Shown: positions 1,028 to 46,056, counted from the stretch's first letter. The stretch: DNA of 64,000 bases from an uncultured Chloroflexia bacterium (GCA_963847595.1 CAWKAJ010000002.1:1597914-1661913), one strand, 5' to 3'. Translations and numbers: made by a program. The notes: generated from the sequence alone by a model not told the origin.

Positions 1028-1150
1028 TTCAGCCCCTTGTATCCCCCAAGATTGGGGGAATTTGAAGACTGGGGGACATCCTTCGACAAGCTCAGGACAG
1101 GCCCCCAGACCCCCGGCAGAGGGGTGAACCCCCCTGCACTCCCCTGTCTG
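1028..1150. repeat. Dispersed hairpin-rich intergenic repeat, copy A
   Basis: Unit ttcagcccc..atcccccaagattggggg..ctgggggacatcc..cccccagacccccggcagagggg..cccctgcactcc is shared with 7 other loci in the window. Confidence 0.6.
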
Positions 1151-1223
1151 TACGGCCTCATATTATGCCCATACATTAGTTGCAGGATACTTCCCTTTAT
1201 ACCTTGAGTGAGGAGGGGAAAAG

Positions 1224-1703
1224 ATGGCCGGTAAATCTAAGCCGCGCAAGTCCTGGCAGGAGAAGCTGGCGGATAGCAAAGACCTGCCCAAGGTCGTAGA
1301 GATTAACAATAAGATGAGCAAGCGGTGGGGGACAGGCACAGTTGCTATCCCGGCCCCGAAGGAAGTGGCTGAAATAATGGGCAAAGTGCCCAAAGGCAAG
1401 CTTATCACGATAAATGAGATTCGCGAAATCCTGGCTAAGAGGCACTGCGCTTCTATCGGATGCCCCATAACAACCGGAATCTTCGCCTGGGTCGCAGCTA
1501 ATGCGGCGGAGGAAGCGGCAGCAGAGGGCAAGAAAGATACTATCCCTTACTGGCGGACATTGAAATCAAGCGGGATTATCAACGAGAAATACCCGGGTGG
1601 GGTGGAGGTCCAAAAGAGGCTTCTGGAGAAGGAGGGGCATAAGGTAGTCCAGAAAGGCAAGAACTACAAAGTGGTCGATTTCGAGAAGTGCTTAGTGAGG
1701 TAG
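1224..1703 (+). CDS. MGMT-family alkyltransferase-like protein. The DNA-binding HTH-like C-terminus is present but the catalytic Cys is absent (IPYWRTL in place of PCHRV).
   Basis: Residual MGMT C-terminal pattern: ITINEIREIL..IGCP..IPYWR..GGVEVQKRLLEKEG. Lys-rich N-terminus. Confidence 0.4.
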   Translation: MAGKSKPRKSWQEKLADSKDLPKVVEINNKMSKRWGTGTVAIPAPKEVAEIMGKVPKGKLITINEIREILAKRHCASIGCPITTGIFAWVAANAAEEAAAEGKKDTIPYWRTLKSSGIINEKYPGGVEVQKRLLEKEGHKVVQKGKNYKVVDFEKCLVR

Positions 1704-1714
1704 TATCCTCTCCT

Positions 1715-1961
1715 TTCAACCCCCTGAGTCCCCCAGTCTTGGGGGAGTTTTAAATCTGGGGGATACCCCCAGACCCCCAGCAGGAGGCATCCTGCACCTC
1801 TTTTTTAATCCCCTGTAACCCCTCCTTTATCGGAAAGATTTGGGGGATCTTAAGGATGGGGGACACCCCTATCCGCCTGAGGCGGACGGCGCCTCTCGAA
1901 ATCCCCCTTAATCCCCCTTTGCAAAAGGGGGAGAAGATGGAGGACGGCTCTTCGGCAGGGT
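1715..1961. repeat. Dispersed hairpin-rich intergenic repeat, copy B (composite, about 250 bp)
   Basis: ttcaaccccctgagtcccccagtcttggggg..ctgggggatacccccagacccccagcagg.. plus a second module ending gggtttagcccagcc that is also present in copy C. Confidence 0.6.
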
Positions 1962-3245: not shown

Positions 3246-3348
3246 TGTCTCATCCTCTGTTTCGCAACATGACAGTTGCGGTGAGACAATGGTATGTAGA
3301 AATACAGTGCATGTCAAGAGAGTGATGGAGGGCGTTTACCAATCAATT

Positions 3349-3677
3349 TTCAGCCCCCTGTATCCCCCAATCTTGGGGGAGTTTTAAATCTGGGGGATAC
3401 CCCCAGACCCCCAGCAGGAGGCATCCTGCACCTCTTTTTTAACCCCCTGAGCCCCGCTCTTTCCTTTAGAAGGATTGGGGGGGGGGTAAGCTTGGGGCTC
3501 CCCATCCGCCAGGGGCGGACTGCACGTCTCGAAATCCCTCTTAATCCCCCTTTGCAAAAGGGGGGAAAAGAGGGGGGACGGCTGTCGGGCGGTGTTGGGG
3601 CTATCTATTCTATTAGTTCTCTCTTAATGCCTCTTTCATAAAGGGGGAGAAGACGGAGGGCGAGTCTTCGGCAGGGT
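3349..3677. repeat. Dispersed hairpin-rich intergenic repeat, copy C (composite, about 330 bp)
   Basis: Same modules as copy B, including a g-run (gattggggggggg) and the terminal gggtttagcccagcc module. Confidence 0.6.
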
Positions 3678-4961
3678 TTAGCCCAGCCCCATGGTGGAGA
3701 AGAACTCGGAGAACCTGTTCTTCAGGCGGTCTATCGAAGTGTACCTTTTGTCGAAGAGGTCAACCCCCAGAGCCAAAAAGGGCACGCCGATGTCGCGGCA
3801 TACCTGGCGCATGATGCCTATGCTGGCGGACCCATCCTTATGGCCCATATGCGCGGGCCAGACGACGCAGTCTATCTTGTAGTCTTTGACTAACTGAACG
3901 ATGTCATTGGCAAGGGTATCAGCGGTACCGTGAACCTGCCTGACCATGGGCAGCTCGCACAGATTCCTTTTGGCCAGGCCTCTGAACATGCTTTCCTCGC
4001 TCGAGGTGTCAATCAGCGTCTGGGATGCGTAACCCATCATGTCCATCACTATGCAGGCTCCCCACTCCTCTCTGAGCCACTTTGTCAGCTCGGATAACCA
4101 CAGAGCGGGAACGTCAAACCATAACAACCTTATCCTTTCGTTCGGCGCATACCCTTTGCCCTCTTTAACCTGCTGCTTTGTAATGTTGACAAGCTTCCTG
4201 AACCACGCGGTGCCTCTGGGGTCGCCAACCATGAAGTTTTGAGCGATATTCCAGGCCTGCGCTCCCTTGGTAGTGGCGGGAGGACAGGGCACGGCACGCC
4301 TCAGCTCATTATATTTTGCCCACAATTTGTACTGTTTGTTGGATTCCTTGACAACCTCTCTAAGCTGGTCGGTATCCAGCTTGCGCCCGGTCTGTTCTTC
4401 GAGGAAGGACACCATCAGACGCAGTTCGTGAGCGTGAAAATCTACGCTGTGCTCGTTTTCCCAATATGGGGGGTCGGTGCAGAAGACCGGCACGTTGCGC
4501 CAGTAGTCATCGTGAGCTATGGCCTGATGCAGCATAGTCGCACCGTCGCAGGGGGAGAGCAGGCCGACAAATGCGGTGGGCAGAGGCACGCGTGCAGCCT
4601 GAACGTTACTGATACCCAACCTGATGAGGGTGCAGGTATCGGTGCCCAGCCCGAACCTGACGGCTTCATCGATTTCTTCCAGAACAAACGGTGCACGGGT
4701 GGGCAGGTAAGTCACCAGCAGAAGCGGATACCAGGGGAGGTCCAGGGCAACCAGCAGCTCCGGGGCGTTCCCGTAGGAGGTGGCGATGAAAGGCCTGCCC
4801 TCTTCGGCAGCCTCAATGATGCGCTGGGCGGTCTCCAGCATTGCCTCAATCAGGGTTGTAGAAAGCTGGTTTTCGGGCGAACGATTCTGCCCGGACATCT
4901 GAAGAATGAGCTGCAGGGCATCGCGCTCCTGCTTGAAGTGCTCCAGGCCTCTGATAGCCAT
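3678..4961 (-). CDS. 2-hydroxyacyl-CoA dehydratase family protein, paralog 2
   Basis: Starts MAIRGLEHFKQ. Collinear with paralog 1 over its full length. Tandem duplicate. Confidence 0.65.
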   Translation of the reverse strand: MAIRGLEHFKQERDALQLILQMSGQNRSPENQLSTTLIEAMLETAQRIIEAAEEGRPFIATSYGNAPELLVALDLPWYPLLLVTYLPTRAPFVLEEIDEAVRFGLGTDTCTLIRLGISNVQAARVPLPTAFVGLLSPCDGATMLHQAIAHDDYWRNVPVFCTDPPYWENEHSVDFHAHELRLMVSFLEEQTGRKLDTDQLREVVKESNKQYKLWAKYNELRRAVPCPPATTKGAQAWNIAQNFMVGDPRGTAWFRKLVNITKQQVKEGKGYAPNERIRLLWFDVPALWLSELTKWLREEWGACIVMDMMGYASQTLIDTSSEESMFRGLAKRNLCELPMVRQVHGTADTLANDIVQLVKDYKIDCVVWPAHMGHKDGSASIGIMRQVCRDIGVPFLALGVDLFDKRYTSIDRLKNRFSEFFSTMGLG

Positions 4962-5136: not shown

Positions 5137-6948
5137 TCAGGGGAGATTGCCCACAGCCGTCGCCGTGTGGTCGGAGTCCATAGTTACTGTTATCGGATTC
5201 TCTCCGGTTGAGTTCCCCACATCAACCTGCCACTGGTCAAAGCTGCACCCTTCGCCTGTCTCTGCAGTGAGCGTAACATTACCGTTTTCAGGAGTGGAAA
5301 ATGCGGTGGTATCACCAGCAGGCACAGTCTGGTTACCGCAGGGCAGGCCTTCTACCAGAATGGGACAGCAGCCGTTAGAGGTCACGGTCAAAGTGTGTGT
5401 GGGATACCCCGCTGTGACATTGCCTGATGGCCAGTCTATGCTGGCGCAGTCCCACCACTCGTGATTTGACAGAGTCTTGTTCCCTTCGAAGACCAATTCA
5501 TCATTAATCCATATCTTTACTGTTGCCGTAGAGAGAAGACCGGTGTCGTGATCCGAATAATAGTAAACTTTGTATTGATAGATGCCGTTAAAAGGCGGAG
5601 CAGCCAGAACTATGTACTCCGGGCCGTAGCCATCTTGGTTATCCACATCTAATGAGGGGTCACCAGTACTATTACCGCCAGACCTATCCCAGTCAGGATT
5701 CGGGTTGGCAAAGTAGCAATCACCGAACGGATCATTCTCAGTATAGCACGGTGCGATGAGGTGGCTATCGAGGTCGGTATTGTTGGTGTCCCAGGTGAGC
5801 TCGGCTTTTATGGCGTATAACTGAATATTCGCATTGACCGTAACTGTATCGTTCCCTGTCTGGCCACTCGCATCGGTGGCAGTCACAGTTATGCTGTTCG
5901 AGCCTGGAATCAGCTCGACCTGGGTGCTGAAGCTATAGTCATAAGTGCTGTTACCCTGAAGGGTCAACGGCAGAGAACGTGTTTCGCCATTAAGGGTAAT
6001 AATCGCCCCAGTTTCACTATTGACCTCATTCGTGCTGGTCACATTACCTGACACTGTGAGCAGCCTGTTATCCGTTGCAGAACCGTCCTCAGGGCTGGTT
6101 ATCTGCACCTGCGGAGCACCACCACCTGGGGTTGGCGTTGGCGTAGGCGTCAGTGTTGGAATAGGAGTCGATGTAGGCGTGGGAATAGATGCTGGCTGGT
6201 AATAATATTGCGGTGGTACATTGGTAGGTGTCGGTGTAGGCGTAGGCGTTGGGGTAGGTGTGGGTATCGGTGTTGGTGTAACACTAGGTGAGGGGTTAGA
6301 GGGTGGGCAACCCACACATGCAGATGATTGCATGCCTGTGCCCACCAATACTGTCACGTTATTGGCTGTAAATCCTACATCACCTTCTTCTGAACTTAAG
6401 GTGGTGTTACCATCTATCCCTACCAGCACCGTGAATATCGTACCTCTAACAACCGCAGAAGCGGCCGGGGTCTCGACCTCGTATTTAGACTCGGAATCTA
6501 CGAGTTTTTGCACGCGGTTGACAGTGTTCCCAACCAGTTGCTTCAATCCGATAGTGGTGGAGCCGGTGCCTGAAAGGCTCATCTCATTGATGAGTATTTC
6601 GGTGTCAGCCTGCACCTCCATAGTGCTGCCTTCAAAGAAGAGGAGCAGGGCAGTACTGTTGCCACCCGTCTTGAGCTGGTCTCCCGCCTCGAGTTTCATA
6701 CCGGCAACGGCTTGTACCCAGGTTGTAGTACCCTGTTTTTGCACCAGCACCTCTCCGCTGAGAGATGAGATAGTGCTGGGAGGGGAACTGGTAGCAGGAG
6801 TAGGAGTAGGAGTGGGAGCAGGGCTAGGAGTAGCTGTCGGTGTCGGAGTGGCTGCTCCCTGTCCACCACAACTGACAAGCGGCACCAGCAGCATTAGTGC
6901 CAGCAGTAAGGCGATATATCTGAAAGCCATTTGGACCTTAGTAGTCAA
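5137..6948 (-). CDS. Secreted lipoprotein with a FecR-like domain, two Pro/Thr-rich linkers, Ig-like middle region and a C-terminal beta-rich domain
   Basis: Lipobox-like LVSCGG after the signal peptide. FecR-like block [37 protein letters not shown]. Linkers (PT)n. Many N-x-S/T sequons. Confidence 0.55.
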   Translation of the reverse strand: MTTKVQMAFRYIALLLALMLLVPLVSCGGQGAATPTPTATPSPAPTPTPTPATSSPPSTISSLSGEVLVQKQGTTTWVQAVAGMKLEAGDQLKTGGNSTALLLFFEGSTMEVQADTEILINEMSLSGTGSTTIGLKQLVGNTVNRVQKLVDSESKYEVETPAASAVVRGTIFTVLVGIDGNTTLSSEEGDVGFTANNVTVLVGTGMQSSACVGCPPSNPSPSVTPTPIPTPTPTPTPTPTPTNVPPQYYYQPASIPTPTSTPIPTLTPTPTPTPGGGAPQVQITSPEDGSATDNRLLTVSGNVTSTNEVNSETGAIITLNGETRSLPLTLQGNSTYDYSFSTQVELIPGSNSITVTATDASGQTGNDTVTVNANIQLYAIKAELTWDTNNTDLDSHLIAPCYTENDPFGDCYFANPNPDWDRSGGNSTGDPSLDVDNQDGYGPEYIVLAAPPFNGIYQYKVYYYSDHDTGLLSTATVKIWINDELVFEGNKTLSNHEWWDCASIDWPSGNVTAGYPTHTLTVTSNGCCPILVEGLPCGNQTVPAGDTTAFSTPENGNVTLTAETGEGCSFDQWQVDVGNSTGENPITVTMDSDHTATAVGNLP

Positions 6949-7226: not shown

Positions 7227-7248
7227 CACGTCTTTGCCCGTTTTATCT

Positions 7249-9147: not shown

Positions 9148-10155
9148 CTAGCTGCTCACGCTGAAATAGACTGTTATTGAATCTGTTTCTCCGGAGAGAA
9201 CATCCTGGAATGCCAGATCAGCTTTGTATTGTCCCACGGGAGCGCCCGGCAGCAGGTCTATGTACAAGGCGCCCCAGAGATAGTTGGGGACTGTGTCCAG
9301 TTGCGTTCGGTGAAAGTCAACCGGACTCGTCCCGCTCATGTAAAGCTGCCCATCGGGGCCATATACTTTAACATCGGTTACTCTGTACCAGACTTCGTAT
9401 GTACCGTTAGAAGCGTTCCATGAAAGGTCTGACGCCTCAAAGTAAATCCAGGCCCTCTCCCCCGGGGCAAAAATGGCATCAGGCCTAATCGTATAGTCTC
9501 TGTCTCCGCGCACATCTGAGCATATTTTGACGTTACCTATTTGAAAAGCAGAGGGCGTTGAAGGAGTGCCTCCTGGAGTGGCGCCGGACCACTCCCCTGC
9601 GTTCACTGTCACTGTTGCCCCTTGGGCGGTGAACCAGACAGTACCCTCATCACAATGGATAATGGTGAAGCCATTAACGCCGACATAGGAGTTAAAAGCA
9701 GTCCCCCGCACCACAGCCGAGCCTGCCGGTGTGTCCACTTCATAGCTGGACCCTGAATTGACAAGTTTTTGCACGCGGTTGACAGTATTACCTACAAACT
9801 GCTTCAAATGGATGGAGGTTGAACCCGTGTGAGGGTCAAGAGCCAGCTCATTTAGAAGGATCTCAGAATCGGCCCCGACTTCTACTACGCTTCCTTCAAA
9901 GAAAACAATTTCAGCTGTACTGTTCCCACCGGTTTTGAGGCTGTCACCCTCAAAGACTTTCATGCCGGAAACGGCTTGAATCCAGGTGGTGGAGCCCTGC
10001 TTCTGTACCAGTACCTCTCCGACAGGGGATGATATGGTGCCAGCAGCCGTAGCAGTTGCTTTGTGATTTCCCAATAACACCAACACCAGTGCAACTATGA
10101 TGGCTACCGCCAGTAAAGAGCCCGTCGATATTAAGAGCTTTCGGTGCTTACGCAT
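9148..10155 (-). CDS. Membrane-anchored FecR-like domain protein, paralog of the N-terminal half of 5137..6948
   Basis: N-terminal TM helix, then [45 protein letters not shown], collinear with the 603-aa protein. Confidence 0.55.
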
Positions 10156-10197: not shown

Positions 10198-11214
10198 TCA
10201 ATCCGGTCTACGTCTCCTAAACCACCCAAGGATCAGGAAAACAAACAAAGCCACAAATAACATTCCGCCTATTATCTCGCCTACCATGGCCCAGGGAACC
10301 GCAGCGGCTCCGGGTGCTGGGGTCGGGGCAGGTGTCGGACTCGCTGTCGGCGTTGGTGCAGGCGTAGGCGTTGGTGCTGGCGTGGGCGTTGGGGTAGGCG
10401 TCGCCGTTGGCATGGGTAGCGGTAAATATCCACCACTACCTATCCCGCCTATAATGCCCCAGGTGACCGCGAGTTCCCCCCCTGCAGGGATCGGAGTCGG
10501 CGCAGGCGTTGCTGCCGGCGTAGGCGTTGGTGCCGGCGTGGGCGTTGGTGCTGGCGTGGGCGTTGGTGCCGGCGTGGGTATGGGCGCAAGGCCTAGCGTC
10601 TGTCCCTCCGAGGTCAACTGGACGACTACGATGGTTACAGTCAGGGTATAACTCTGGCCCTGGGGCACTATTTGTCCGGGTTCGGTGCCAACGCCTATGG
10701 ACAGGGCGCCAACCACCTCTTGACCAGCATCTATAGTCTGGTTCAGGTCTATTCCACTAAGTGTGGCAGTCAGCACCGATGTATCAGGGTTCTGAATATC
10801 TATGGACTGGACAATGCCGGGAGTATTCTCTTGATTGCTCAGTCCGAAGAAAACAGTCGGATAGTAGCCAGGATAGGCATTGCTAAGAGTAATGCTAATG
10901 GTGTCCGCGTTCTCGTCGATTGAGGCGGTCGTTGCTGCCACGTTACCGCTAAACCTTCCACAGGCGACACCTGGTGTCTGTGCCTGATAAGGGTCGTTAC
11001 CATTATCGCCGAGGTCAATTCCACTGGGATATTCAGCCGACGTTCCGATGTGGTTGTTATCATTTGATTCCACCCAGGAGAAGGTGCAGAGGCTATTACC
11101 GCCCGGATCAGGGCTGCCGTTGGCATAGGTGATGCCGATAGCTCCCAGTGCTATCAGTGACACTATCAGGACTAACAACGCCAGCCCTAACTTGTCTCTT
11201 TTTTCCGTTATCAT
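10198..11214 (-). CDS. Secreted TasA-like protein with SipW-cognate-type signal peptide, two (PT/PA)n linkers and a C-terminal TM anchor with RRRRPD tail
   Basis: N-terminus [24 protein letters not shown] resembles the TasA signal (LGLALVGGGTWAAF). Core motif [17 protein letters not shown] is shared with the next two genes. Confidence 0.5.
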
Positions 11215-12293: not shown

Positions 12294-12914
12294 TTACTGG
12301 TTCTGGCTAGCAGTAACGGTGAATGTAACTGTATAGCTTCCACCCGTTTTCGGCGGGTCTGATGAGGCTCCACCGTTGGTGCCAACACCGATAGTGATTG
12401 TGCCGACAGCAGACGCGCCAACGGCAATAGGAACGGGTCCGGCGGCTAGAGAACCGGTGACCGCTACAGCGAGGTCTGTCGTGGCTCCGCCACCTGAATT
12501 AACCTGCGTCTGCGGCCCACTTGCAACAACCTTTATTGGGACACTGCCGGTATTCGCAACCTGGACGGCAACTGACCCAAAATAGCCGGGATAGGCATTG
12601 TTGATGGTGACAGTCAGAGTGTCACCAGTGACCGTGGTGGTCGTTATGGCGACCGTTGTGTTCCCTACATTTGTGCTTGCCCTCGTCCCGCTGTCCCAGA
12701 CACCACCGCTCCATGAGCCTGCACTACTTGGGTCAAGGATATTACCAGGAGTACCGTCGTCATTGGATACTGCCGACGCGAACTTCGCGCCGAATGTTCC
12801 GGTGTTGACGTTAGCCGTAACATTCAACGACTGGCTCCACGCGGCGTAGCCCACGCCCAGCGCGCCCAGCGCCAGGACTACCACCAGGACTATGAGACCA
12901 ACTTTTTTGTTCAT
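12294..12914 (-). CDS. Secreted TasA-like protein with SipW-cognate-type signal peptide (paralog, 206 aa)
   Basis: MNKKVGLIVLVVVLALGALGVGYAAWSQ. Motif NNAYPGYFGSVAVQVAN. Confidence 0.5.
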   Translation of the reverse strand: MNKKVGLIVLVVVLALGALGVGYAAWSQSLNVTANVNTGTFGAKFASAVSNDDGTPGNILDPSSAGSWSGGVWDSGTRASTNVGNTTVAITTTTVTGDTLTVTINNAYPGYFGSVAVQVANTGSVPIKVVASGPQTQVNSGGGATTDLAVAVTGSLAAGPVPIAVGASAVGTITIGVGTNGGASSDPPKTGGSYTVTFTVTASQNQ

Positions 12915-13793
12915 TTTGTTTCCTCTCCTGTTTTATCTTCGTTTTTTGTCTCTGGATATATTCCCGTTTTTGTTTCTAATTTTTGGTTTCACCCTCCGAT
13001 GCCGACTCATGGGGGCCCCCTTCCACCGATGCTGTGGAAGACCGACCAGGGCTCGCTAGCACCGTGCTCCAAGCCAGGTGTTTTTATCTCCAGAACTAAC
13101 TTCTCATCACCCATAGGAATCATCCCTTTCTCAACTCAGGAATATTTCACGTGGAGAAATCCCTTTTACAAAAGAAAGACCGACCTAAGAAGGTCGGTTT
13201 CACCATTCGCTCGCCGCTGCTTAGGTGACCAAATACAAGCAACGGTTCCCTGCCACCTGTTAATTGCGAGGACGATATGCAGTTTTGGGGTCGTTTGGGG
13301 ACGAATCGACCCGCCAAAATGCAAGCCCCCAGATCTAGTTGCTATCGATATTAAGCTGCTCACCTCCTGCCGCGTAGCGCCTGCTTCCCTGAGGTTCCTC
13401 TGCCGCTCAGCCAGTGATGCCTCTGGGATGGCCTTGTACTAGTGCACAGGCCAGAGATAATTCGGAGCTGAATTCAATCCTCCTTGGTGTAATGCTTCAG
13501 CCATTGCCCCAACAGGTCTCTGGCATTGGAGCAACACAAATACCATGCCCTTTAGTATAGAATATCCTTGGGGAATTAATTACTCGGATATCCCCCCCTT
13601 TTTTGGCAAAAAACACCCCATTTATTGTCATGCATAATCGTCATGCTCTCCGCAAGTAATTTTGCGCCTTCACTCAATGTATGCCCTGAAAAATATAGCA
13701 GGGAAACCTTCGAGGACTGGCGTGTCAAACCCGAACTTTACGACTAGCGGAGAAGAGGCAAGAGCAGTTTCGCACAGTTGACGGTATGGACAC

Positions 13794-13882
13794 CACGGAT
13801 CTCAGCAGACGGATGTCACATATCTGTAATAAGCATAATCGGAACGTGCTCGATGTCGCTAAATCTCCGAAACAAATACAAA
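13794..13882. repeat. About 90-bp direct repeat, copy 1 (copy 2 at 17225..17315)
   Basis: ccacggatctcagcag..acatatctgtaataagcataatcggaacgtgctcgatgtcgctaaatctccgaaacaaatacaaa matches 17225..17315 with few mismatches. Confidence 0.5.
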
Positions 13883-13934
13883 TGCATGTAGGTATTACTG
13901 CTGACCGTCACAGTTAGTGGAATAGGCCTGGACC

Positions 13935-14133
13935 AGATTATGCATGTCTGCCAAGGAGGCCGTCGGCGCCCTGTCAATACGCGTCGGTACCAAACCTGGA
14001 CAAATAGTGCCCCAGGGCAATAGTTATACTGCGAGTGTAACCATCGTAGTCATCCAGTGTACCCAAAGCGGACACACGCTAGTCGTCGGTGCCACCTCCC
14101 TGCCCGCCCCGGCTATTACCTGACAGCTCGAAC
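13935..14133 (+). pseudogene. Inverted C-terminal fragment of a TasA-like gene (paralog of 10198..11214)
   Basis: Translates to [34 protein letters not shown], versus [34 protein letters not shown] in the 338-aa protein. No N-terminal part. No ORF called in the tract. Confidence 0.5.
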
Positions 14134-17224: not shown

Positions 17225-17315
17225 CCACGGATCTTAGCAGGCAAAGGTTACATATCTGTAATAAGCATGATCGGAACGTACTAGATATCGCTGAATTCCC
17301 GAAACAAATACGAAC
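17225..17315. repeat. About 90-bp direct repeat, copy 2
   Basis: Matches 13794..13882. It overlaps the 3' end of the vWA-like reading frame. Confidence 0.5.
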
Positions 17316-35519: not shown

Positions 35520-35609
35520 ATAAAAAGACTCTGGTTCGCTTATGTACAGTAGGGGCATCCTTCAGTGGAAGGATGCCCCTACGTGCAAAGGAATATAGTC
35601 AGGCCCTAA

Positions 35610-36880: not shown

Positions 36881-36889
36881 ATTGTAGTT

Positions 36890-36930
36890 TCACCCTCATC
36901 CTTCGACAAGCTCAGGACAGGCTCTAGCCT
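36890..36930. repeat. Dispersed repeat, partial copy F
   Basis: atccttcgacaagctcaggacagg matches copy A. Followed by hairpin cctctcccgtcgagggagagg. Confidence 0.45.
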
Positions 36931-36976
36931 CTCCCGTCGAGGGAGAGGGACTACAAATTGATGAAAGGGGCTTCAA

Positions 36977-38582: not shown

Positions 38583-38691
38583 AAAATAGGGTATGTATTG
38601 GATTGTAGGGGCACAAAATTTTGTGCCCCTACGTTGTTCCGACAACCTGCGATTGCCTTATTCGGATGTAGGGGCAATTCATGAATTGCCC

Positions 38692-40071
38692 CTACTCATT
38701 ATCTTCGGGTAGTTTATCTTGCGATAGCCCCGCCCTTATCGCCTGGGACAGCGAACTCACGGCGATGGGTTTCATCTCGCGGGGCAGCTTCTGTCCGCCT
38801 GGGAGCGGGGGAATGAGGCAGGAGGTGAAGCCGAGCTTGGCAGCCTCGGCCAGCCGCTTCTCCAGTTGAGATACAGACCTGAGCTCTCCGCTGAGCCCTA
38901 TTTCGCCGATAGCCACCAGACTGGGATTAACCCCGGCGTTCTTGAAGCTCGAAGCAATAGCCAGGGCTATGCCTAGGTCGGCCGCCGGCTCATTCACCTT
39001 GAGCCCGCCTACCACGTTCGTGATAATGTCCTGAGTCCCTAAAGATAGCCTCGCTCTCTTGGTGAGGACGGCGGTTATCATGAGCAGGCGGTTGTAGTCC
39101 ACGCCGTTGGCGTTGCGGCGGGGCAAGCCGAATGCGGTGGGGCTGGTCAGCGCCTGAATCTCCACTAGCAGAGGCCGCGTACCTTCGATGGTGGGCACGA
39201 TAACAGAGCCCACCGCTCCCTCGGAGCGCTGCGAGAGGAAGACCAGGGAGGGATTGGCCACCTCGACCATTCCCCGGTCTCTCATCTCGAACACGCCTAA
39301 CTCGTCAGTGGAGCCGAAGCGGTTCTTGGCGCCGCGCAGCAGCCGGTACGAGCTGTAGCGTTCCCCTTCGAGGTAAAGGACGACATCCACGATATGTTCC
39401 AGGGTATTGGGGCCGGCGATGGAGCCGTCCTTGGTGACATGCCCCACTATGAAGATGGGGGTGTTGCTCGATTTAGCCCAGCGCATCAGCCTCTGCGTGC
39501 ACTCGCGTACCTGTCCGACGCTGCCTGCTGCTGAGGAAAGGTCGCTGGAGTGAACCGTTTGGATGGAATCTATAATCACCAGCCGCGGCGAGATTTCCTG
39601 GCCCCGCTCGATGATGCTCTGCAAATCGGTCTCGGGCAGGAGGAACAGCCCCTCGCCACGCAGCCCCAGTCTGTCCGCCCTCAGCTTTATCTGATGCGCC
39701 GACTCCTCGCCGGAGACATACAGCACCTTGCCCACGCTTTCGGCAATCATGCCGGCCACCTCGAGCAGCAGCGTTGACTTGCCTATGCCGGGGTCGCCGC
39801 CGATGAGCACCATGGAGCCGGGGACAATGCCGCCGCCCAGCACACGGTTAAACTCGGCCAGGGGCAGGGCCAGGCGGGGCACGGAGTTGGTGGGCAGCCG
39901 GGATAGCTCCTGGGCTTGAGTTCTTGAGCTCAGTTGGGTCGCTTTTGGTGCGGGGCTGACCAGGCTCTCGACATAGGTGTTCCATTCGTTGCACTCTGGA
40001 CAGCGCCCCAGCCACTTGGGGCTCTCATTGCCGCAGTTCTGACAGACGAAGACGCTCTTGGGTTTAGGCAT
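38692..40071 (-). CDS. radA: DNA repair protein RadA (Sms)
   Basis: N-terminal C4 zinc finger CQNCG..CPEC. RecA-like Walker A GDPGIGKST. KNRFG. Lon-like C-terminus. Confidence 0.9.
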   Translation of the reverse strand: MPKPKSVFVCQNCGNESPKWLGRCPECNEWNTYVESLVSPAPKATQLSSRTQAQELSRLPTNSVPRLALPLAEFNRVLGGGIVPGSMVLIGGDPGIGKSTLLLEVAGMIAESVGKVLYVSGEESAHQIKLRADRLGLRGEGLFLLPETDLQSIIERGQEISPRLVIIDSIQTVHSSDLSSAAGSVGQVRECTQRLMRWAKSSNTPIFIVGHVTKDGSIAGPNTLEHIVDVVLYLEGERYSSYRLLRGAKNRFGSTDELGVFEMRDRGMVEVANPSLVFLSQRSEGAVGSVIVPTIEGTRPLLVEIQALTSPTAFGLPRRNANGVDYNRLLMITAVLTKRARLSLGTQDIITNVVGGLKVNEPAADLGIALAIASSFKNAGVNPSLVAIGEIGLSGELRSVSQLEKRLAEAAKLGFTSCLIPPLPGGQKLPREMKPIAVSSLSQAIRAGLSQDKLPEDNE

Positions 40072-40725: not shown

Positions 40726-40774
40726 CGCTGCATTTCCTCCTTATAAGTTGTAAAGGTTATTTTATTAATCTGCT

Positions 40775-40864
40775 TTCAACCCCCTGGCCCCCAATCTTGG
40801 GGGGATTTGAGAGTTGGGGACACCCCAAACCCCCGGCAAAGGGGCTTCGCCCCTCTGCACTCCT
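40775..40864. repeat. Dispersed hairpin-rich intergenic repeat, copy G
   Basis: ttcaaccccctggcccccaatcttgggggg..ttggggacaccccaaacccccggcaaaggggcttcgcccctctgcactcc. Confidence 0.6.
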
Positions 40865-40883
40865 CAATTGTTAAACATACTCC

Positions 40884-42857
40884 TTATATCTCGGCGGCGG
40901 CGAGCCAGCCCTCTTTTATGGCTTCCAGTATCGTCCTGGCCTCGACGCAGTCACCGATGCACTTGACCTCGACGCCCGTTTTCTCAATCGCTTCCTTGAG
41001 TTCGGTATTGGGTACGGACCCGGCAGCAAGTATGAAGGTATCAGCAGGGAAGTTCTTCATGGCATCGGCTGCGATCTCCGCCATGGAGGTTATGCCTCCA
41101 CGCACGTGGACACGCATGCCGGTCTCGGTTGCCTGCTGGTACTGGACGCCGGTGAGCATGCGGATGCCTTTGTTTCTCATCCTGTCGACGAGGAGTATCC
41201 TCATGTCGGGGTTCATCTTATTCGCCATGAACTGGCTTCTTCGGGCTATGGCCACCTGCTTGCCCTGGTCTGCCAGGAACTCGGCGGTCTCGCAGCCCAC
41301 CAGGTCGCCGCCGATGATGAACACCTTCTTACCCACCTTGGCCTTGCCCAGAAGCACATCCTCAGCGGTCACTACGTTCTTCAGCGTATCCAGGCCGGGT
41401 ATGTCCTCAGGGCTGGGGACCAAATTTTTAACGCCGGCGGCGAGGATAACCACATCGGGCTTGGCCTTCTTAATCTCTTCCGCAGTGATGGCCTTGCCCA
41501 GCACTACCTTGACCTTAAGCTTCCTCAACTGATTTATCATATAGGCTGTCAGGTCACGGATGTCCTTCTTGTAAGGAGGTATTGCGGCCAGGATCAATTG
41601 GCCGCCCAGCTTCCGTTCTTTTTCATAGAGCGTTACCTGGTGCCCTCTCAGCGTTGCCACGCGGGCTGCCTCCATGCCTGCAGGCCCGCCGCCCACGATG
41701 ATGACCTTCTTGGGCTTGGCTGCTTTCTTAATCTCGAACTCTTTCTCCCTGCCCACGGCGGGGTTGACCACGCAGGCAACGCCGTCAGCCCAAGCCAGGG
41801 TCTCGATGCAGTGGTTGCAGTGGATGCAGGGCCTGATATCCTTCTCTCTGCCCCTGGCGAGCTTGTTGGGAAGGTCGGGGTCACACTGCATCGCCCTGCC
41901 CATGGCGACGAAATCAATCTTGCCCTGCTTAATAGCCTGGTCGCCGATCTCAGGAGTGATATGCGCTGCGGCGATAATGGGAACCTTGACTACCTTCTTG
42001 ACCTGCTCAACCAGGCCAAGGTTGGGGGCAGGGCCGTCGGCTTCCGTGGGGCACATTGTGAAGTATTGCCAGGCGTAATCGTAGAATCCGCCCTGAGAGA
42101 GGTGGATGGCATCCGCTCCGGCAGCCACGAACATGGGCACCTGCACTAAAGTATCCTGCAGGGTGACGCCGTATTCGGCTACCTTGCCGCCTTTGACATA
42201 ATATACTTCATAGATGCTGGTGCGGCACCACAGCGGGAAATTCTTGCCCACTTCCTTTCTCACTGCCTTCAGGGTATCGCACATGAATCGCGCCCTGTTC
42301 TCCACGCTGCCGCCGTATTTGTTTTTGAGCGTGTTCCAGATGCGGGAGCGGAACTGGGTTTGCCCATTGATATTGGCGCCGTGGATTTCGATGGCATCAA
42401 ACCCCGCCTCTTTGGCTCTTCTCGCCCCCTCGACGAACTTCTGGATAATGTATTGGATTTTGTCTATCGATAGCTCTCGAGGCAGCTCCGCCCCCATGAC
42501 CGGCCTTTGCTCTCCCATGGCCCAGATGGAGCCGTGATAGATTTGCAGGCAGGCCTTGGCGCCATTTTTCTTGATGGTCTGGGCCAGCTTTGTTAATCCC
42601 GGCATATATTTGTCGTCGTCGATATTCAGCCCGAAGGGTAGCCCTGCTGCTCCGGCAGTGTCGACATTAGCGTTCTCGACGATGATCATCCCGACGCCGC
42701 CCTTGGCGCGCGCCTCATGGTAGGCCAGCAATCGGTCGGTGGCCTCGCCGCCTTCGCACACATTGGTCCCCATGGGAGGATAAACAATGCGGTTTTTGAG
42801 CTGCAGGGTGCCGATGCGGCCGGGGGAAAACAAGCTTTCATACTGGGACTTGGGCAT
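40884..42857 (-). CDS. 2,4-dienoyl-CoA reductase-like NADH:flavin oxidoreductase (OYE TIM barrel plus Fe-S plus FAD/NAD(P) domain)
   Basis: OYE N-terminus. CIHCNHC cluster. GGGPAG Rossmann motif. Confidence 0.7.
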   Translation of the reverse strand: MPKSQYESLFSPGRIGTLQLKNRIVYPPMGTNVCEGGEATDRLLAYHEARAKGGVGMIIVENANVDTAGAAGLPFGLNIDDDKYMPGLTKLAQTIKKNGAKACLQIYHGSIWAMGEQRPVMGAELPRELSIDKIQYIIQKFVEGARRAKEAGFDAIEIHGANINGQTQFRSRIWNTLKNKYGGSVENRARFMCDTLKAVRKEVGKNFPLWCRTSIYEVYYVKGGKVAEYGVTLQDTLVQVPMFVAAGADAIHLSQGGFYDYAWQYFTMCPTEADGPAPNLGLVEQVKKVVKVPIIAAAHITPEIGDQAIKQGKIDFVAMGRAMQCDPDLPNKLARGREKDIRPCIHCNHCIETLAWADGVACVVNPAVGREKEFEIKKAAKPKKVIIVGGGPAGMEAARVATLRGHQVTLYEKERKLGGQLILAAIPPYKKDIRDLTAYMINQLRKLKVKVVLGKAITAEEIKKAKPDVVILAAGVKNLVPSPEDIPGLDTLKNVVTAEDVLLGKAKVGKKVFIIGGDLVGCETAEFLADQGKQVAIARRSQFMANKMNPDMRILLVDRMRNKGIRMLTGVQYQQATETGMRVHVRGGITSMAEIAADAMKNFPADTFILAAGSVPNTELKEAIEKTGVEVKCIGDCVEARTILEAIKEGWLAAAEI

Positions 42858-43149
42858 CTACTCCTCCTTGATTTGAGAATATTTTTTAATAGATTAGATT
42901 TAGGATTGAAGCTGGTAGAGGCTAATAGGGGGTTGCAGCCTCTGCGAACGCAATAATCTCCCCGAGGTTGGGTGACGGGACTAAGATTATCGCCAGAAAA
43001 GAAACGGGGATGATAAGGGGGCTGTGATAGAGGTCATTTGGGAGCATGGCGGAAGCATAGTAGCCCATCTTGTTGCGGTTGTCAATAGTTGTCCAGGGGT
43101 GTACAGGGGCGTTTATCGTAGGGCGGGTTTCAAACCCGCCCTACCTGTG

Positions 43150-44544
43150 CTATCCCTCGTATTTCTTGAACACCAGGCAGGCGTTCTGGCCCCCGAAGCC
43201 GAAGCTGTTGGAGAGGGCTACATTAACATCCTTTACTCTGGCTACATTGGGCACGTAATCCAGGTCACAATCGGGGTCCGGGTATTCGTAGTTTATTGTG
43301 GGATGAATCACACCTGTGGTGATCGTTTTGATGCAGGCCACTGCTTCCACAGCCCCCGAACCGCCCAGAAGGTGCCCGATCATGGATTTGGTGGAGCTTA
43401 TGGGGATGTGATAGGCGTGCTCTCCGAAGAGCAATTTAATCGCCAGGGTCTCCACAGCATCGTTGAGCTGTGTTGAGGTTCCGTGGGCGTTGATGTGTTC
43501 AACCTCATTGGGCGAGAGGCCAGCGTCCTCAATTGCCCAGCGCATGGCGCGAATGGCTCCGGCACCATTTTCATGGGGAGCTACCACATGGTAGGCGTCC
43601 GATGATGCGCCGACGCCGGCAACCTCGGCATAGATGCGAGCATTCCTGTGCATGGCATGCTCCAAACTTTCCAGGATGAGAATGCCGGCTCCCTCTGCAG
43701 GAACGAAGCCATCCCGCTTGGCATCGAAGGGGCGGCTGGCCTTGGTCGGCTCATCGTTCCGAGTGGTCAAGGCTTTCATCACACAGAACCCGGCTATCCC
43801 TGTGGGGGTCAGGGCAGCCTCGCTGCCACCGGCGACCATGACCTCTGCTTTACCAAGTCTTATCACCTCTACGGCATCGCCGATAGCCTGGGTTGCAGCA
43901 GCGCAGGCGGTGGTTATGGTGGAGGAAAAACCTGTGAGCCCGAAGATAAGGCTGATCTGCCCTGCCGCCATGTTAGGCAGGATTATGGGCATGAAAAAGG
44001 GGGTTATCCTCATTCCGCCTTTCTCCAACAGGGTATGGTATCCTGCCTCAGCTTCAGGGAAGCCGCCGATTCCATTGCCGATAATCACGCCCAGCATGTC
44101 TGTGTTCTCGCGGCTGATATCGAGTCTGGCATCGTCTATAGCCATCCTCGCTGAGGCTACAGCGAATTGGCTGAACCGCGCCATCCTGCGCGCTTCTTTG
44201 AAGTCCATGTAGTTGCGGGGGTCAAAGTCCTTTACTTCGCCGGCTATCTGGCAGCTCAGACTGCTGACGTCGCAACTAGTAGTTTTAGCGATGCCTGACC
44301 TTCCTTCAATCAGTCCCTGCCAGTATTCGTCAACGGTGAGACCCAGGGGTGTAACTACCCCCATGCCGGTGACGACAACGCGGCGCCTCTCCTTCTTCCC
44401 CCGGCCTGTCCGCTGGGTGCGTGTTTTGGGGAGGCGGTGTGCCTTTGCCTTTTTGGCTATGCCTGTGAGCAGCTCATCGATTTGCTTATCGACGACTGCG
44501 GTGACTGCTTTTGATTGTTCAATCTCCGAACCCCCTGCCCCCAT
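43150..44544 (-). CDS. fabF: Beta-ketoacyl-ACP synthase II. The real start may lie downstream of the called one (50-aa basic N-terminal extension in the ORF).
   Basis: RRVVVTGMG. Active-site Cys region. Confidence 0.75.
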   Translation of the reverse strand: MGAGGSEIEQSKAVTAVVDKQIDELLTGIAKKAKAHRLPKTRTQRTGRGKKERRRVVVTGMGVVTPLGLTVDEYWQGLIEGRSGIAKTTSCDVSSLSCQIAGEVKDFDPRNYMDFKEARRMARFSQFAVASARMAIDDARLDISRENTDMLGVIIGNGIGGFPEAEAGYHTLLEKGGMRITPFFMPIILPNMAAGQISLIFGLTGFSSTITTACAAATQAIGDAVEVIRLGKAEVMVAGGSEAALTPTGIAGFCVMKALTTRNDEPTKASRPFDAKRDGFVPAEGAGILILESLEHAMHRNARIYAEVAGVGASSDAYHVVAPHENGAGAIRAMRWAIEDAGLSPNEVEHINAHGTSTQLNDAVETLAIKLLFGEHAYHIPISSTKSMIGHLLGGSGAVEAVACIKTITTGVIHPTINYEYPDPDCDLDYVPNVARVKDVNVALSNSFGFGGQNACLVFKKYEG

Positions 44545-44555
44545 TAAAACCCTCC

Positions 44556-45878
44556 TTAGCTTGCGTAGCGTTCGGGATGCAAGCCCTTCACATATTCTAT
44601 CACCTCGGCGACAAGGAATAGAGAGCCCGTGGCGCAGATGAGGTCTCCCCTGCCCGCTTTTCCTTGTGCCTCTGCCACTGCCCCGGCAACATCCTCCGCC
44701 GTCTCAGCCTGCACTCCCAATCGGGCAAACTCGCCAGCCAGTATCTCGGGCCTGGAGGCCCGGGGATGGCGCGAGCGAGTCACGATAACGGTATTTGCCA
44801 GCGGCGCTAATTCTTCGACTATCCCCGACGCATCCTTGTCGGCAGATGTACCCATTATAAGGATTAAATGGTCAAAGTGGAAATATTCTTTGAGCGCTTC
44901 TTTGAGCTTGCTCGCCGAATCGCGGTTATGGGCACCGTCCACGACGAGCAGCGGCCTGCGCCTCAGGATTTGCAGACGCCCGGGCCAGTTGGTCCTGGCT
45001 AATCCAGCCTCTATGCTTTTCCGGGGCACTCCCAGAACTTCCAGGGCTCCGACAGCAGCGGCGGCATTCTGCAACTGGTGCGCCCCGAGGAGGGGTATGG
45101 TTATCCGATAGGAGCCTCTAAGTCCCTGCACCTCCATTGATTGGCCGGAAAGGTTGGAGTCGAGTTTTCGCCACGTGATGTCGCTGCCCACTGAGACCAG
45201 CCTGGCTCCCTTCCTCTGGCAAGTCTCTCTAATCACCCCTGCAGCCTCATCGGCTTGAGCAGAGCTAACCACAGGGCGCCCCGGCTTGATAATGCCCGCC
45301 TTTTCGGCTGCGATCTGGGCGAGGGTGTCGCCCAATACCTCCGTATGGTCGAGGCTTATCGAAGTGATGATGCTAACCTCCGGGGTGACCACGTTAGTGG
45401 CATCCAGTCTGCCTCCCAGCCCTGTCTCCAGCACCTGGTAATCAACCTCCTTTTGCTGAAAATACATGAAGGCAGCGGCGGTGAGCAGCTCGAAGGTGGA
45501 AAGCTCGCCATAGGTCTTGTCATGGTCTATCGCTTCGACATGGGGCCGCATCCTGGCGACCACTGATTCCAGCTCTGATTTGAGTATAGGCTTACCGTCC
45601 ACCTGTATCCTTTCGCGAAGTGTAACCAGGTGGGGGGAAGTATAAAGCCCTGTCCTATAGCCGGCAGCCTGAAGCCCCGCCGCAATCATAGCTGACGTGC
45701 TGCCCTTGCCCTTGGAGCCGGCGATGTGCACAGCCTTCGTGCTGAGATGCGGGTTGCCCAGCCTCTGCAGCAGGGCGTCCATACGCCTCAGGTCGAACCT
45801 GCTGGCGTAGTTGTAGCCCGGCCACCTTTCGTAGTCGGTGCGGCTAAGCAAAAAATTGAGGGCAGCAGCGTAGTTCAT
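44556..45878 (-). CDS. folC: Folylpolyglutamate synthase / dihydrofolate synthase (Mur ligase family)
   Basis: HIAGSKGKGST P-loop. Mur ligase middle and C domains. Confidence 0.8.
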   Translation of the reverse strand: MNYAAALNFLLSRTDYERWPGYNYASRFDLRRMDALLQRLGNPHLSTKAVHIAGSKGKGSTSAMIAAGLQAAGYRTGLYTSPHLVTLRERIQVDGKPILKSELESVVARMRPHVEAIDHDKTYGELSTFELLTAAAFMYFQQKEVDYQVLETGLGGRLDATNVVTPEVSIITSISLDHTEVLGDTLAQIAAEKAGIIKPGRPVVSSAQADEAAGVIRETCQRKGARLVSVGSDITWRKLDSNLSGQSMEVQGLRGSYRITIPLLGAHQLQNAAAAVGALEVLGVPRKSIEAGLARTNWPGRLQILRRRPLLVVDGAHNRDSASKLKEALKEYFHFDHLILIMGTSADKDASGIVEELAPLANTVIVTRSRHPRASRPEILAGEFARLGVQAETAEDVAGAVAEAQGKAGRGDLICATGSLFLVAEVIEYVKGLHPERYAS

Positions 45879-45957
45879 CGTATAGAAAGGACGGTTTTTA
45901 ATGATTGGCTATTATATCATTGGGGCAAAGTCACTACAAGAGAACCCGCTTACTAAT

Positions 45958-46056
45958 GGGGGAGTGCAGAGGGGCTCTCCCCTCTGCCAGGGGGCTGTGG
46001 GTGTCCCCCAAAATTCTAAATTCCCCCATGATTGGGGGATACAGGGGGTTGAAAAG
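45958..46056. repeat. Dispersed hairpin-rich intergenic repeat, copy H (inverted orientation)
   Basis: ggagtgcagaggggctctcccctctgcc..gtgtcccccaaaattc..tcccccatgattgggggatacagggggttgaa is the reverse complement of the unit. Confidence 0.6.

Follow-up and report, generated by a model that had tools for sequence, protein, structure and literature searches.

A mosaic family of three-hairpin intergenic repeats in Dehalococcoidia and its likeness to MITEs and BIMEs

REP sequences are imperfect palindromes of 20-40 bp with a GTAG or CGTC tag at one end, the two tags defining two super-families (PMC3733652). Prokaryotic MITEs include Correia/NEMIS, RUP and ERIC/RU-1 (reviewed in PMC10969869), and the Clostridiales-2 RNA motif RF02937 is classed as a candidate small RNA rather than a mobile repeat (Weinberg et al. 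2017, PMC5737381). We describe here a repeat family from a 64-kb stretch of DNA of a Dehalococcoidia bacterium, the whole of which is referred to as the window, and compare it with these systems. As in the BIMEs of Enterobacteria and Pseudomonas, which are built from REP palindromes, the units are strictly extragenic G+C-rich hairpins joined in fixed mosaic order to linker motifs that are not palindromic, occur in tandem or dimeric layouts, lie 3' of stop codons and in operon spacers, and contain palindromes that are targeted by IS, here a DDE transposon in hairpin 2. In contrast to BIMEs, the unit lacks a GTAG/CGTC tag, consists of three different hairpins rather than one REP in alternating orientations, has cores made of G5/C5 runs, has direct repeats flanking its insertion sites, and is not accompanied by a RAYT in the window. 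The units resemble MITEs in being 90-140 nt long, non-coding, multi-copy and strongly structured, in being present or absent at orthologous sites (F, E, G, ECH1-ECH2 and S16-ACS), and in having clean insertions with flanking direct repeats (8 bp at E) and inverted termini in A and F. Unlike in MITEs, conservation peaks in the internal hairpins and not at the ends, the direct repeats are uneven in length, and the termini vary from copy to copy: no terminal inverted repeat is shared by the whole family, those of A (12/13) and F (13/17) differing in sequence and the other copies having none, and no parent IS with matching ends was found in any locus examined. Small dispersed repeats of cyanobacteria are reportedly very short hairpin units nested in other repeats or hairpins. 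A 24-mer that copy A carries within its hairpin-2 loop, that also lies in element H and that is missing at the orthologous site in one relative (L309) recalls that arrangement, although the sequences are unrelated, the phylum is another one, and the short module is here a passenger of a larger three-hairpin unit. The repeat family is new, and its general kind is known.

The window contains six full units of ~90 nt each (Table 1). Three variant units in second position, a partial copy of variant type and the remnant of a deletion are also present. The full units scored 86-101 bits against a covariance model built from these same six. The core TTGGGGGA-N10-TGGGGGAYACCCC, allowing up to three mismatches, was matched seven times compared to 0.00 expected from shuffles, and the leader with hairpin 1 five times compared to 0.05 expected. 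The family is real and non-random, well beyond chance. Its conserved core of ~90 nt comprises, in order, the leader (TAATCT..)TTTCAACCCCCTG, hairpin 1 of the C5/G5 type (TCCCCCA-N4-TGGGGGA), an AT-rich 10-nt spacer, hairpin 2 of the G5/C5 type (TGGGGGA-YA-CCCCCA, then RACCCCC), and hairpin 3, which is variable and forms an exchangeable cassette. Complete copies measure ~135 nt and family units 90-171 nt, and type-I and type-II units are frequently paired as dimers. A gene map supported by Pfam matches places every copy in an intergenic spacer, as the first-pass annotation had claimed, many of them directly 3' of stop codons, and no Pfam family was found on translations of the units. Copies B and C stem from a single tandem gene-plus-flank duplication (1714-1828 and 3348-3462 at 90% identity, 1902-2201 and 3618-3917 at 87%). 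D2 adds a spurious N-terminal extension to the FtsH ORF (ATG at 25308), the FtsH_ext domain beginning only at residue 42.

Table 1. Units, variants and associated elements in the 64-kb window
Feature	Position	Strand	Description
Copy A	998-1168	+	Core unit 1026-1146; 88.4 bits
Copy A ends	998-1010 and 1156-1168		12/13 inverted repeat GCATAGTATGAGG / CCTCATATTATGC
Nested 24-mer TCCTTCGACAAGCTCAGGACAGGC	1079-1102	+	In hairpin-2 loop of copy A; stem TCCT/AGGA, loop TCGACAAGCTC; identical to 36899-36922
Copy B, type I	1713-1804	+	90 bits; short hairpin 3 GCAGGA/TCCTGC
B2, type-II variant	~1802-1885	+	3' of copy B; more hairpins up to HGD-D stop codon (1962-1964)
Copy C	3347-3436	+	Paralogous duplicate of B, 90% identical; 89.4 bits
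C2, type II	~3436-3497	+	3' of copy C; hairpins on to stop codon at 3678
Copy D, type I	25123-25219	+	Divergent NurA / FtsH spacer; 100.8 bits
D2, type-II variant	25253-25335	+	48.9 bits
G, 173-nt insertion	29236-29408	+	Between MnmE stop codon and PAC2 start; type-II-like leader (29270-29286); hairpin ACCCT-TCGCTAAAGCTC-AGGGT (29349-29369); flanked by direct repeat CACTTA / TACTTG (~6 bp, imperfect)
H, different composite hairpin element	36882-36956	+	Outer stem TTGTAGT/ACTACAA, inner CCTCTCCC-GTCG-AGGGAGAGG; has acquired the 24-mer at 36899-36922
Copy E	40737-40887	+	Unit 40773-40867; element 40745-40879 (135 nt); perfect 8-bp direct repeats CTCCTTAT at 40737-40744 and 40880-40887
Copy F	45936-46081	-	Unit 45957-46055; element 45941-46076 (136 nt); 13/17 inverted repeat AGAACCCGCTTACTAAT (45941-45957) / ATTAGTGAACGCCTTCT (46059-46075); ACAAG direct repeats 45936-45940 and 46077-46081 (5 bp perfect; 7/8 with one indel)
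Remnant AATCAACCCCCTGTGTTCCAATCT	52657-52680	+	Leader and 5' arm of hairpin 1; left by internal deletion

Eight copies had been listed at first pass, and six of them correspond to the full units A to F. The other two were mis-assigned: 29272-29320 is only a partial variant unit within insertion G, and 36890-36930 belongs to element H, which has nothing but the 24-mer in common with the family. An 'extra module ending gggtttagcccagcc' proved to run over the final codons and the stop codon (...TMGLG*) of two paralogous HGD-D genes. The 'perfect hairpin' placed at the end of the unit exists in F only; an A.C mismatch interrupts it in E and D, and B and C have another, shorter hairpin.

To compare filled and empty sites, the orthologous loci of five Dehalococcoidia relatives (L309-L313) and, for the G site, of L318 were used; the relatives form a graded series. 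The spacer that holds copy F is 265 nt in the window compared to ~135 nt in L309, L311, L312 and L313 and 170 nt in L310, and the 136-nt insert between the ACAAG repeats is absent in all five. At the E site, L309 and L311 share the element, and L313, which lacks it, has only one CTCCTTAT; read on the minus strand, this repeat is ATAAGGAG, which comprises the OYE stop codon and the glyoxalase ribosome-binding site. The G spacer measures 186 nt in the window and 16 nt in L318, a 92% relative. Two complete tandem units occupy the S16-ACS spacer of L311, where the window and L309 retain only a 24-nt stub, and in the ECH1-ECH2 spacer the place of element H in the window is taken in L311 by a full three-hairpin unit; L309, a 96% relative, lacks the 24-mer there. 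Presence and absence vary among 85-96% relatives, beside genes as unrelated as argF, OYE, ECH, S16 and MnmE. Hairpin 3 of the E ortholog is long in the window and L309 and short in L311, and another shared site carries two tandem units in L064 and a single chimeric unit in L113. Collectively, these comparisons show that close relatives have gained or lost copies at orthologous positions between genes, with short flanking direct repeats in the clean cases, that copies decay through internal deletion, and that they exchange modules through recombination. Since the direct repeats are uneven (8 bp perfect at E, 5 bp perfect at F, ~6 bp imperfect at G), some events could be microhomology-mediated insertions or deletions, and E and G, with one empty relative each, could reflect loss instead of gain. 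The polymorphism and the flanking repeats bear out the original proposal of a dispersed, intergenic REP/BIME- or MITE-like family.

On balance, we consider it likely that the units are small mobile DNA elements of Dehalococcoidia, non-coding and non-autonomous, which make up a mosaic MITE/BIME-like family. Copies would be moved in trans by an enzyme whose gene lies elsewhere; the simplest fit would be a DDE-type transposase that makes duplications of up to 8 bp. No cognate transposase was found among the ~60 ORFs of the window, which counts against this reading. Insertions may persist only at harmless places, namely just 3' of stop codons, 5' of ribosome-binding sites and in divergent promoter spacers. 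Of seven spacers flanked by genes that run in the same direction, six have the complement of the unit on the mRNA strand (C, E, G, the S16-ACS site, L311-H and L320; the exception is A), a bias that is not significant (one-sided p ~0.06, from gene maps and model matches). Within operons, the orientation that places the G-rich strand in the mRNA would mostly be kept, which would avoid the terminator-like signal of the other strand, that is, hairpin 1 followed by a U-tract. Any host function, such as mRNA 3'-end protection or weak termination, would be secondary.

Hairpin 2 is itself the target of other insertions, namely the 24-nt hairpin, a 95-nt insert and a 3.8-kb DDE transposon, the last lying exactly in hairpin 2 in L329 with a 10-bp duplication of the hairpin; unrelated inserts interrupt hairpin-2 loops in three other lineages. 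The 18-nt core of the 24-mer was found in at least 120 IMG/VR contigs with a G+C content of 0.32 to 0.72, in 117 distinct contexts with 109 distinct flank pairs and varying stem flanks, and the 22-mer TGGGGGAYACCCCCARACCCCC in 24 stretches, giant-virus bins among them. Sub-modules of the unit occur as exact 18-22-mers in highly diverse phage and bacterial contigs, which a lineage-specific selfish element alone does not explain. Together with the interrupted loops and with the identical 24-mer in copy A and element H, absent at the L309 ortholog, this spread raises the idea that the unit has been assembled from ultra-short 'hairpin words', themselves self-mobile, common to phyla and phages, and prone to enter the loops of other hairpins. 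We regard this as unlikely. If true, it would imply that tiny hairpins are copied into the loops of hairpins by a widespread and undescribed process, which could work on single-stranded DNA or by templated repair and which would have the Rfam 'Clostridiales-2 sRNA' among its products. The 24-nt TCCT-TCGACAAGCTC-AGGA hairpin and the G5-ACA-C5-AGA-C5 clamp are candidate words.

A mobile MITE/BIME-like family could also be moved as single-stranded hairpins by a RAYT (HUH Y1 transposase) elsewhere in the genome, which would make the units REP/REPIN-type elements. Their extragenic, hairpin-rich mosaic build and the use of hairpin 2 as an IS target are those of REPs in BIMEs. Six of eight independent insertion loci have the same chromosomal orientation, on the strand with positive GC skew, which would suit lagging-strand-template targeting, but 6:2 is not significant. 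A separate family of GTAG-tagged palindromes, GTAGGGGC...GCCCCTAC, is present in the window and has this tagged-palindrome feature of a REP; the three-hairpin unit does not, since the alignments have neither GTAG nor CGTC at either end of any unit hairpin on either strand, and its three different hairpins stand in a fixed order with no inverted doublet of one palindrome. HUH/RAYT-type transposition makes no target duplication, whereas the 8-bp sequence that L313 has once stands perfectly duplicated around copy E, and F is flanked by the ACAAG repeats. In a REPtron, the RAYT gene is flanked by its repeats. The RAYT gene announced at first pass could not be recovered: no Y1_Tnp (PF01797) or other transposase family matched any of the ~60 ORFs, which are essentially all the coding capacity of the window. 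We therefore hold a RAYT origin to be distinctly improbable.

A similarly low probability is given to the units being primarily structured RNA, either a cis-acting mRNA element or a small RNA related to Clostridiales-2, with dispersal secondary. Three independent copies give sub-threshold matches to RF02937 (A 29.2, E 20.8 and F 18.4 bits), in each case on the complement of the unit strand, and this strand is the mRNA strand in the six of seven operon spacers given above. The best match, that of copy A on the minus strand (E 2.5e-5 to 3e-4), covers the 24-mer and hairpin 3; the shared words, GGGgUGcaGgGG...CCcCugCCG (hairpin 3 and flanks) and GUCGAAGG (complementary to the nested 24-nt hairpin), have the order and strand of copy A. 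However, matches of 18-29 bits are far under the gathering score of 58.6, with none at threshold, the central 32 model positions are skipped, and the motif is from a different phylum. Pairing in hairpin 3 is maintained through different sequences (GCAGAGGGG/CCCCTCTGC, GCAGGA/TCCTGC, TCCACC/GGTGGA and TCCGCC/GGCGGA), and the A.C on the unit strand of six of the nine long hairpin-3 copies reads G.U on the opposite strand. Against this, only two double compensatory changes fall in the 21 modelled pairs, the common A.C was probably inherited from one master copy, and the RNA folding suggested at first pass gave modest whole-element z-scores of -0.6 to -1.9. Presence and absence beside unrelated genes, as well as tandem arrays and stubs, also argue against a primary RNA function.

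It is very improbable that the units are dispersed intrinsic terminators, possibly bidirectional, in the manner of the pneumococcal SPRITE elements. In B and C, GTTTTAAATC comes after hairpin 1 and ACCTCTTTTT after the short hairpin 3, hairpin 2 of D has a T-rich tail on the minus strand, and many copies directly follow stop codons. Nevertheless, the U-tracts are only 3-4 long, and A, E and F fail the terminator scan. E, G and C lie inside co-directional pairs whose original spacers were very short, where termination would be polar, and D and F are in divergent promoter regions. The orientation bias, moreover, suggests avoidance of the terminator-like strand in operons.

The single segmental duplication behind B and C might point to an artefact of local duplication, or else G5/C5 runs could have clustered by chance in the window alone; this reading was rejected as next to impossible given the 0.00 matches expected from shuffles, the copies in other genomes, metagenomes and a phage, and the assemblies that break within units. 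Density varies by lineage, from six units per 64 kb in the window to four per 21 kb in L311 and one per 21 kb in L309; a covariance-model search of ~119 kb of L310, L313 and L314-L318 returned none. Units were also found in L319 (a 1.34-Mb contig), L320 and L321; beyond the window, the family is present in relatives and other Dehalococcoidia genomes. Among translated sequences there were 27 tiny repeat-derived ORFs (E<=1e-3), one of them from a 'Dehalococcoidales bacterium' MAG, and 120 clusters (50% identity), of which some hold 5-6 stretches in tandem and none matches a Pfam family. Logan contig L122, which is 100% identical, has its ends inside E and inside F, and IMG/VR contigs likewise terminate within units, which shows that the units are multi-copy enough to break short-read assemblies. 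At least one phage carries units: L327, with terminase, portal and capsid genes, contains three.

Alignment of six regions gave the unit a fixed order, from 5' to 3': a leader ((TAATCT..)TTTCAACCCCCTG), hairpin 1 (TCCCCCA-N4-TGGGGGA), an AT-rich spacer of ~10 nt, hairpin 2 (TGGGGGA-YA-CCCCCA) followed by RACCCCC, and hairpin 3 with ACTCCCC directly after it. The six full copies in the window scored 86-101 bits against R1, a covariance model of the unit. The core pattern with up to three mismatches matched the window seven times and the leader plus hairpin 1 five times, compared to 0.00 and 0.05 matches expected from dinucleotide shuffles. RNA folding predicted three hairpins in every copy and on both strands, bearing out the hairpin-rich character described in the first-pass annotation. 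Paired cells made up 92.5% in the 13 best copies; classical covariation was weak (two double changes) because the G5/C5 stems are nearly invariant. Hairpin 3 is a cassette, with four unrelated stem sequences at one position, all pairing. G-quadruplex, i-motif or triplex structures, which the four C5 and two G5 runs might form, were also considered. Type-II units have the leader and both G5 runs of the main unit, and differ in hairpins 1 and 3 (TCCGCC-NNN-GGCGGA).

Positions of the repeats and of other features in the window
Feature	Position	Strand	Description
Copy A	1026-1146	+	full unit
Copy B	1713-1804	+	full unit, type-II unit directly 3'
Copy C	3347-3436	+	full unit, type-II unit directly 3'
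Copy D	25123-25219	+	full unit, type-II unit directly 3'
Copy E	40773-40867	+	full unit
Copy F	45957-46055	-	full unit
Insertion G	29236-29408		173 nt
Partial copy	29270-29320		type-II version
Element H	36882-36956		different hairpin element
24-mer	36899-36922, 1079-1102		in element H and in copy A
False ORF starts	25308, 29332		FtsH, PAC2
Second hairpin family	23574-23601, 35549-35582, 38605-38632, 38668-38695		perfect palindromes
Second hairpin family	21028-21061, 22978-23011		degenerate copies
Riboswitch RF01786	13183-13265	-	c-di-GMP-II, 57.4 bits, above gathering
Inverted duplication	10565-10775, 13899-14110		~210 nt, 75-79% complementary
Direct repeat	13793-13882, 17225-17314		84%
Tandem periodicities	5137-6948, 10198-11214		GTNGGN-type, long, 18-nt spacing

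All repeat copies lie in spacers between ordinary chromosomal genes, as was first reported. A Pfam scan of ~60 ORFs, essentially all the coding capacity of the window, identified MIP, HGD-D, archaeal-type flagellins, HerA/NurA, FtsH, MnmE, enoyl-CoA hydratases, RadA, FolC and OTCase, as well as Der, PlsY, GpsA, RimM/S16, ADP-forming acyl-CoA synthetases and others. Two window proteins have homologues that their sources assign to Dehalococcoidia or Chloroflexota; exact protein look-ups, made for two proteins of the window, returned no match. Neither Y1_Tnp nor any other transposase was matched among these ORFs, and the RAYT gene that the first-pass annotation had placed in the window is therefore withdrawn. 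ORF calls starting within units, such as those of FtsH and PAC2, are artefacts that give false N-terminal extensions. Two further readings were revised. The copy listed at 36890-36930 is element H, which has only the 24-nt hairpin TCCTTCGACAAGCTCAGGACAGGC in common with the unit; this 24-mer is also nested, identical, in the hairpin-2 loop of copy A. What was read as an extra module ending gggtttagcccagcc overlaps the 3' end (final codons and stop) of two paralogous 2-hydroxyacyl-CoA dehydratase genes, and therefore copies B and C represent one tandem gene-plus-flank duplication rather than two insertions.

The decisive evidence came from syntenic loci in relatives, five of them ranked by OTCase identity to the window (L309, 96%; L310, 89%; L311 and L312, 87%; L313, 85%) and a sixth, L318, with a QueG-like protein 92% identical to the window's. 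The folC-argF spacer is 265 nt long in the window, compared to ~135 nt in L309, L311, L312 and L313 and 170 nt in L310. The length difference corresponds to a 136-nt block that includes copy F and lies between ACAAG direct repeats, with inverted termini (13/17). At the OYE-glyoxalase spacer, CTCCTTAT (the stop codon and ribosome-binding site on the coding strand) occurs once in L313, whereas in the window it flanks both sides of a 135-nt element containing copy E; the element is also present in L309 and L311. The MnmE-PAC2 spacer, 16 nt in L318, reaches 186 nt in the window, where insertion G has imperfect flanking repeats. Two tandem units occupy the S16-ACS spacer of L311, of which the first 24 nt alone are kept in the window and L309, an internal deletion. 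The ECH1-ECH2 spacer holds a full unit in L311, element H in the window and element H minus the 24-mer in L309. Modules were also exchanged: the orthologous E copy has a long hairpin 3 in the window and L309 and a short one in L311, and at another site two tandem units in L064 stand against one chimeric unit in L113. Therefore, elements were gained, lost, truncated and recombined within the time separating relatives of 85-96% identity. Filled and empty orthologous sites agree with the REP/BIME- or MITE-like class first proposed. This general class of small non-autonomous intergenic repeats is known; the repeat is new as a family and its architecture is unusual.

The argF leader showed two further features. 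In L310 it carries a different insertion, a GTAG-type palindrome (9940-9990; GTAGGGGCGGTTCGCGAACCGCCCCTGC, minus strand), close to the spot of copy F. In L319, a more distant Dehalococcoidia genome with different genes around the unit, a unit (10024-10121) again precedes argF by 80-90 nt, with the relative orientation of copy F, and the five closer relatives have no unit there. This could be a coincidence in compact genomes or a preferred site.

The family is not confined to the window: units were found in relatives, metagenomes and phage contigs, so the dispersed family claimed at first pass is real. Strong R1 hits numbered six per 64 kb in the window, four per 21 kb in L311, one per 21 kb in L309, one per 20 kb in L319 (a 1.34-Mb Dehalococcoidia contig) and one per 11 kb in L320, with none in ~119 kb of L310, L313 and L314-L318. 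A Logan contig from another sample was 100% identical to window positions 40834-46052 and ended inside copies E and F, which is what a multi-copy repeat should produce. Searches with profiles built on the translated unit retrieved 27 tiny ORFs (E<=1e-3), including one of a 'Dehalococcoidales bacterium' MAG, and 120 clusters at 50% identity among 1.84 billion representatives, some with 5-6 tandem stretches; Pfam matched no family on these repeat-derived ORFs. In IMG/VR, full units were present in L325, L327 and L329, and several contigs end within a unit. L327 encodes a terminase, SPP1-type portal, capsid and SU10-type adaptor, has three units around the terminase and portal genes (1-2609) and ends inside one of them. 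Therefore, at least one real phage carries the unit.

Other searches were less productive. A scan of GTDB representatives (the source genome and its relatives evidently not among them) for hairpin 1 plus a G5 run gave one chance-like match only, BLAST of copy D matched no deposited phage or plasmid, and the pattern CCCCCARACCCCCNGCAR returned mostly unrelated phage elements from viral contigs. Among the matches listed, the metagenome scan yielded mostly another, soil-borne palindromic family, with L064, L113 and L024 the only true relatives. This other family (L002-L121; ~115 nt, abundant in soil/sediment metagenomes) reads CCTCC-TCCCCCAACATGGGGGAGG-ATCGAGG-TGGGGGAAGCGAGCG...CGCGGCTTCCCCCTCCC-TAACCC-TCCCCCANNNTGGGGGAGGG; its grammar of C5/G5 hairpin and G5 clamp is that of the unit, and its sequence is otherwise different.

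Hairpin 2 is a recurrent insertion point. The inserts are the 24-mer in copy A, 95 nt in L024, a small hairpin in a phage group and a 3801-nt transposon in L329 (1341-5141). The transposon encodes a DDE_Tnp_1 + SWIM transposase and a MerR-like gene, has an 11-bp perfect terminal inverted repeat (AGCTTTGCACA), and its 10-bp target duplication GGGGTACCCC is the hairpin-2 palindrome itself. We rejected this transposase as the autonomous partner of the unit, since the ends of the transposon (AGCTTTGCACA / TGTGCAAAGCT) show no relation to the unit, in which it simply interrupts hairpin 2.

The 18-mer and 22-mer sub-modules are not lineage-specific. The 18-mer CCTTCGACAAGCTCAGGA occurred in at least 120 IMG/VR contigs (L147-L266) with G+C of 0.32 to 0.72; the matches listed comprised 117 distinct contexts and 109 distinct flank pairs. 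In most contexts the variable bases beside the 18-mer added just one or two pairs to its CCT/AGG stem, and the first six positions outside the 18-mer held 113 A.C mismatches compared to 51 G.T on the 18-mer strand. Rfam returned no family for loci with the 18-mer hairpin at the E-value threshold. The 22-mer TGGGGGAYACCCCCARACCCCC was found in 24 IMG/VR stretches (L123-L146) from phage contigs with G+C of 0.37 to 0.66, including two giant-virus bins, and is often beside a similar GGGGCTCTGCCCCAGACCCCGC unit or iteron-like repeats (GGGGGATGCACT x3). BLAST of a phage region with the 22-mer, and string searches of the searchable literature for the conserved words, gave no match. We estimate that an exact 18-mer is expected by chance about once per 3.4e10 bases per strand; both counts are therefore far above chance. 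The results thus expose short hairpin words common to very different genomes. From this spread without a known family, one might read the words as ultra-short hairpins that are mobile on their own and insert into loops of other hairpins, which we regard as improbable.

At the gathering threshold, Rfam matched nothing at the repeats and only the c-di-GMP-II riboswitch in the window. In a permissive search, RF02937 (Clostridiales-2) matched three independent copies, each time on the strand complementary to the unit, with scores of 29.2, 20.8 and 18.4 bits (threshold, 58.6). The matches cover hairpin 3 and its flanks together with GUCGAAGG, which is complementary to the 24-mer. The likeness is one of construction, not membership, suggesting that Clostridiales-2, a catalogued candidate small RNA, may be a repeat built like the unit. 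The G-rich complement of the unit was the mRNA strand in six of seven spacers between co-directional genes (C, E, G, the S16-ACS site, L311-H and L320; A was the exception; one-sided binomial p ~0.06). On the unit strand, a short U-tract lies directly 3' of hairpin 1, which passed a terminator scan in B and C and failed in A, E and F. We infer that the terminator-like orientation may be counter-selected inside operons. The unit is a possible modifier of operon expression.

Collectively, the elements are non-coding, multi-copy, intergenic, insertion/deletion-polymorphic, recombining and phage-borne, with direct repeats at the clean cases, and are evidently mobile. They would be mobilised in trans by a transposase encoded elsewhere; the simplest fit would be a DDE enzyme whose duplications measure up to 8 bp. 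The weak points of this reading are that the copies compared have no family-wide terminal inverted repeat, that the flanking direct repeats are of unequal length between sites and that no partner enzyme for the unit was found. Possible alternatives are microhomology-mediated copying and a RAYT/HUH mechanism encoded elsewhere in the genome; the Pfam scan of the window ORFs does not support a RAYT association.

Dehalococcoidia genomes are small and streamlined, and dispersed repeats are not known as a feature of them. The mosaic element, which is proliferating, is carried by phage and inserts precisely between stop codon and ribosome-binding site, is thus of use as a marker of recent genome dynamics. 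The unit also causes assembly breaks and spurious ORFs, from the FtsH/PAC2 extensions to >100 clusters of tiny 'hypothetical proteins'.

In the second hairpin family of the window, the outer clamp (GTAGGGGC...GCCCCTAC) is conserved and the palindromic interior varies; the family has the GTAG tag in common with classical REPs. Its copy number in the ECH3-RadA spacer is two in the window, 1-2 in L309 and 3-4 in L311. The riboswitch lies upstream of a gene cluster (12294..12914 and neighbours) whose secreted products have SipW-type signal peptides, adjoined by a signal peptidase/DUF5305 pair and archaeal-type flagellin genes. Through the inverted duplication, part of gene 10198..11214 is repeated in 12915-14385, a stretch otherwise free of genes, and the direct repeat links 13.8 kb and 17.2 kb; both suggest rearrangement in the surface-protein cluster. 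The tandem periodicities lie within two secreted-protein genes, encode Pro/Thr-rich linkers on the coding (minus) strand and bear no relation to the intergenic repeat.
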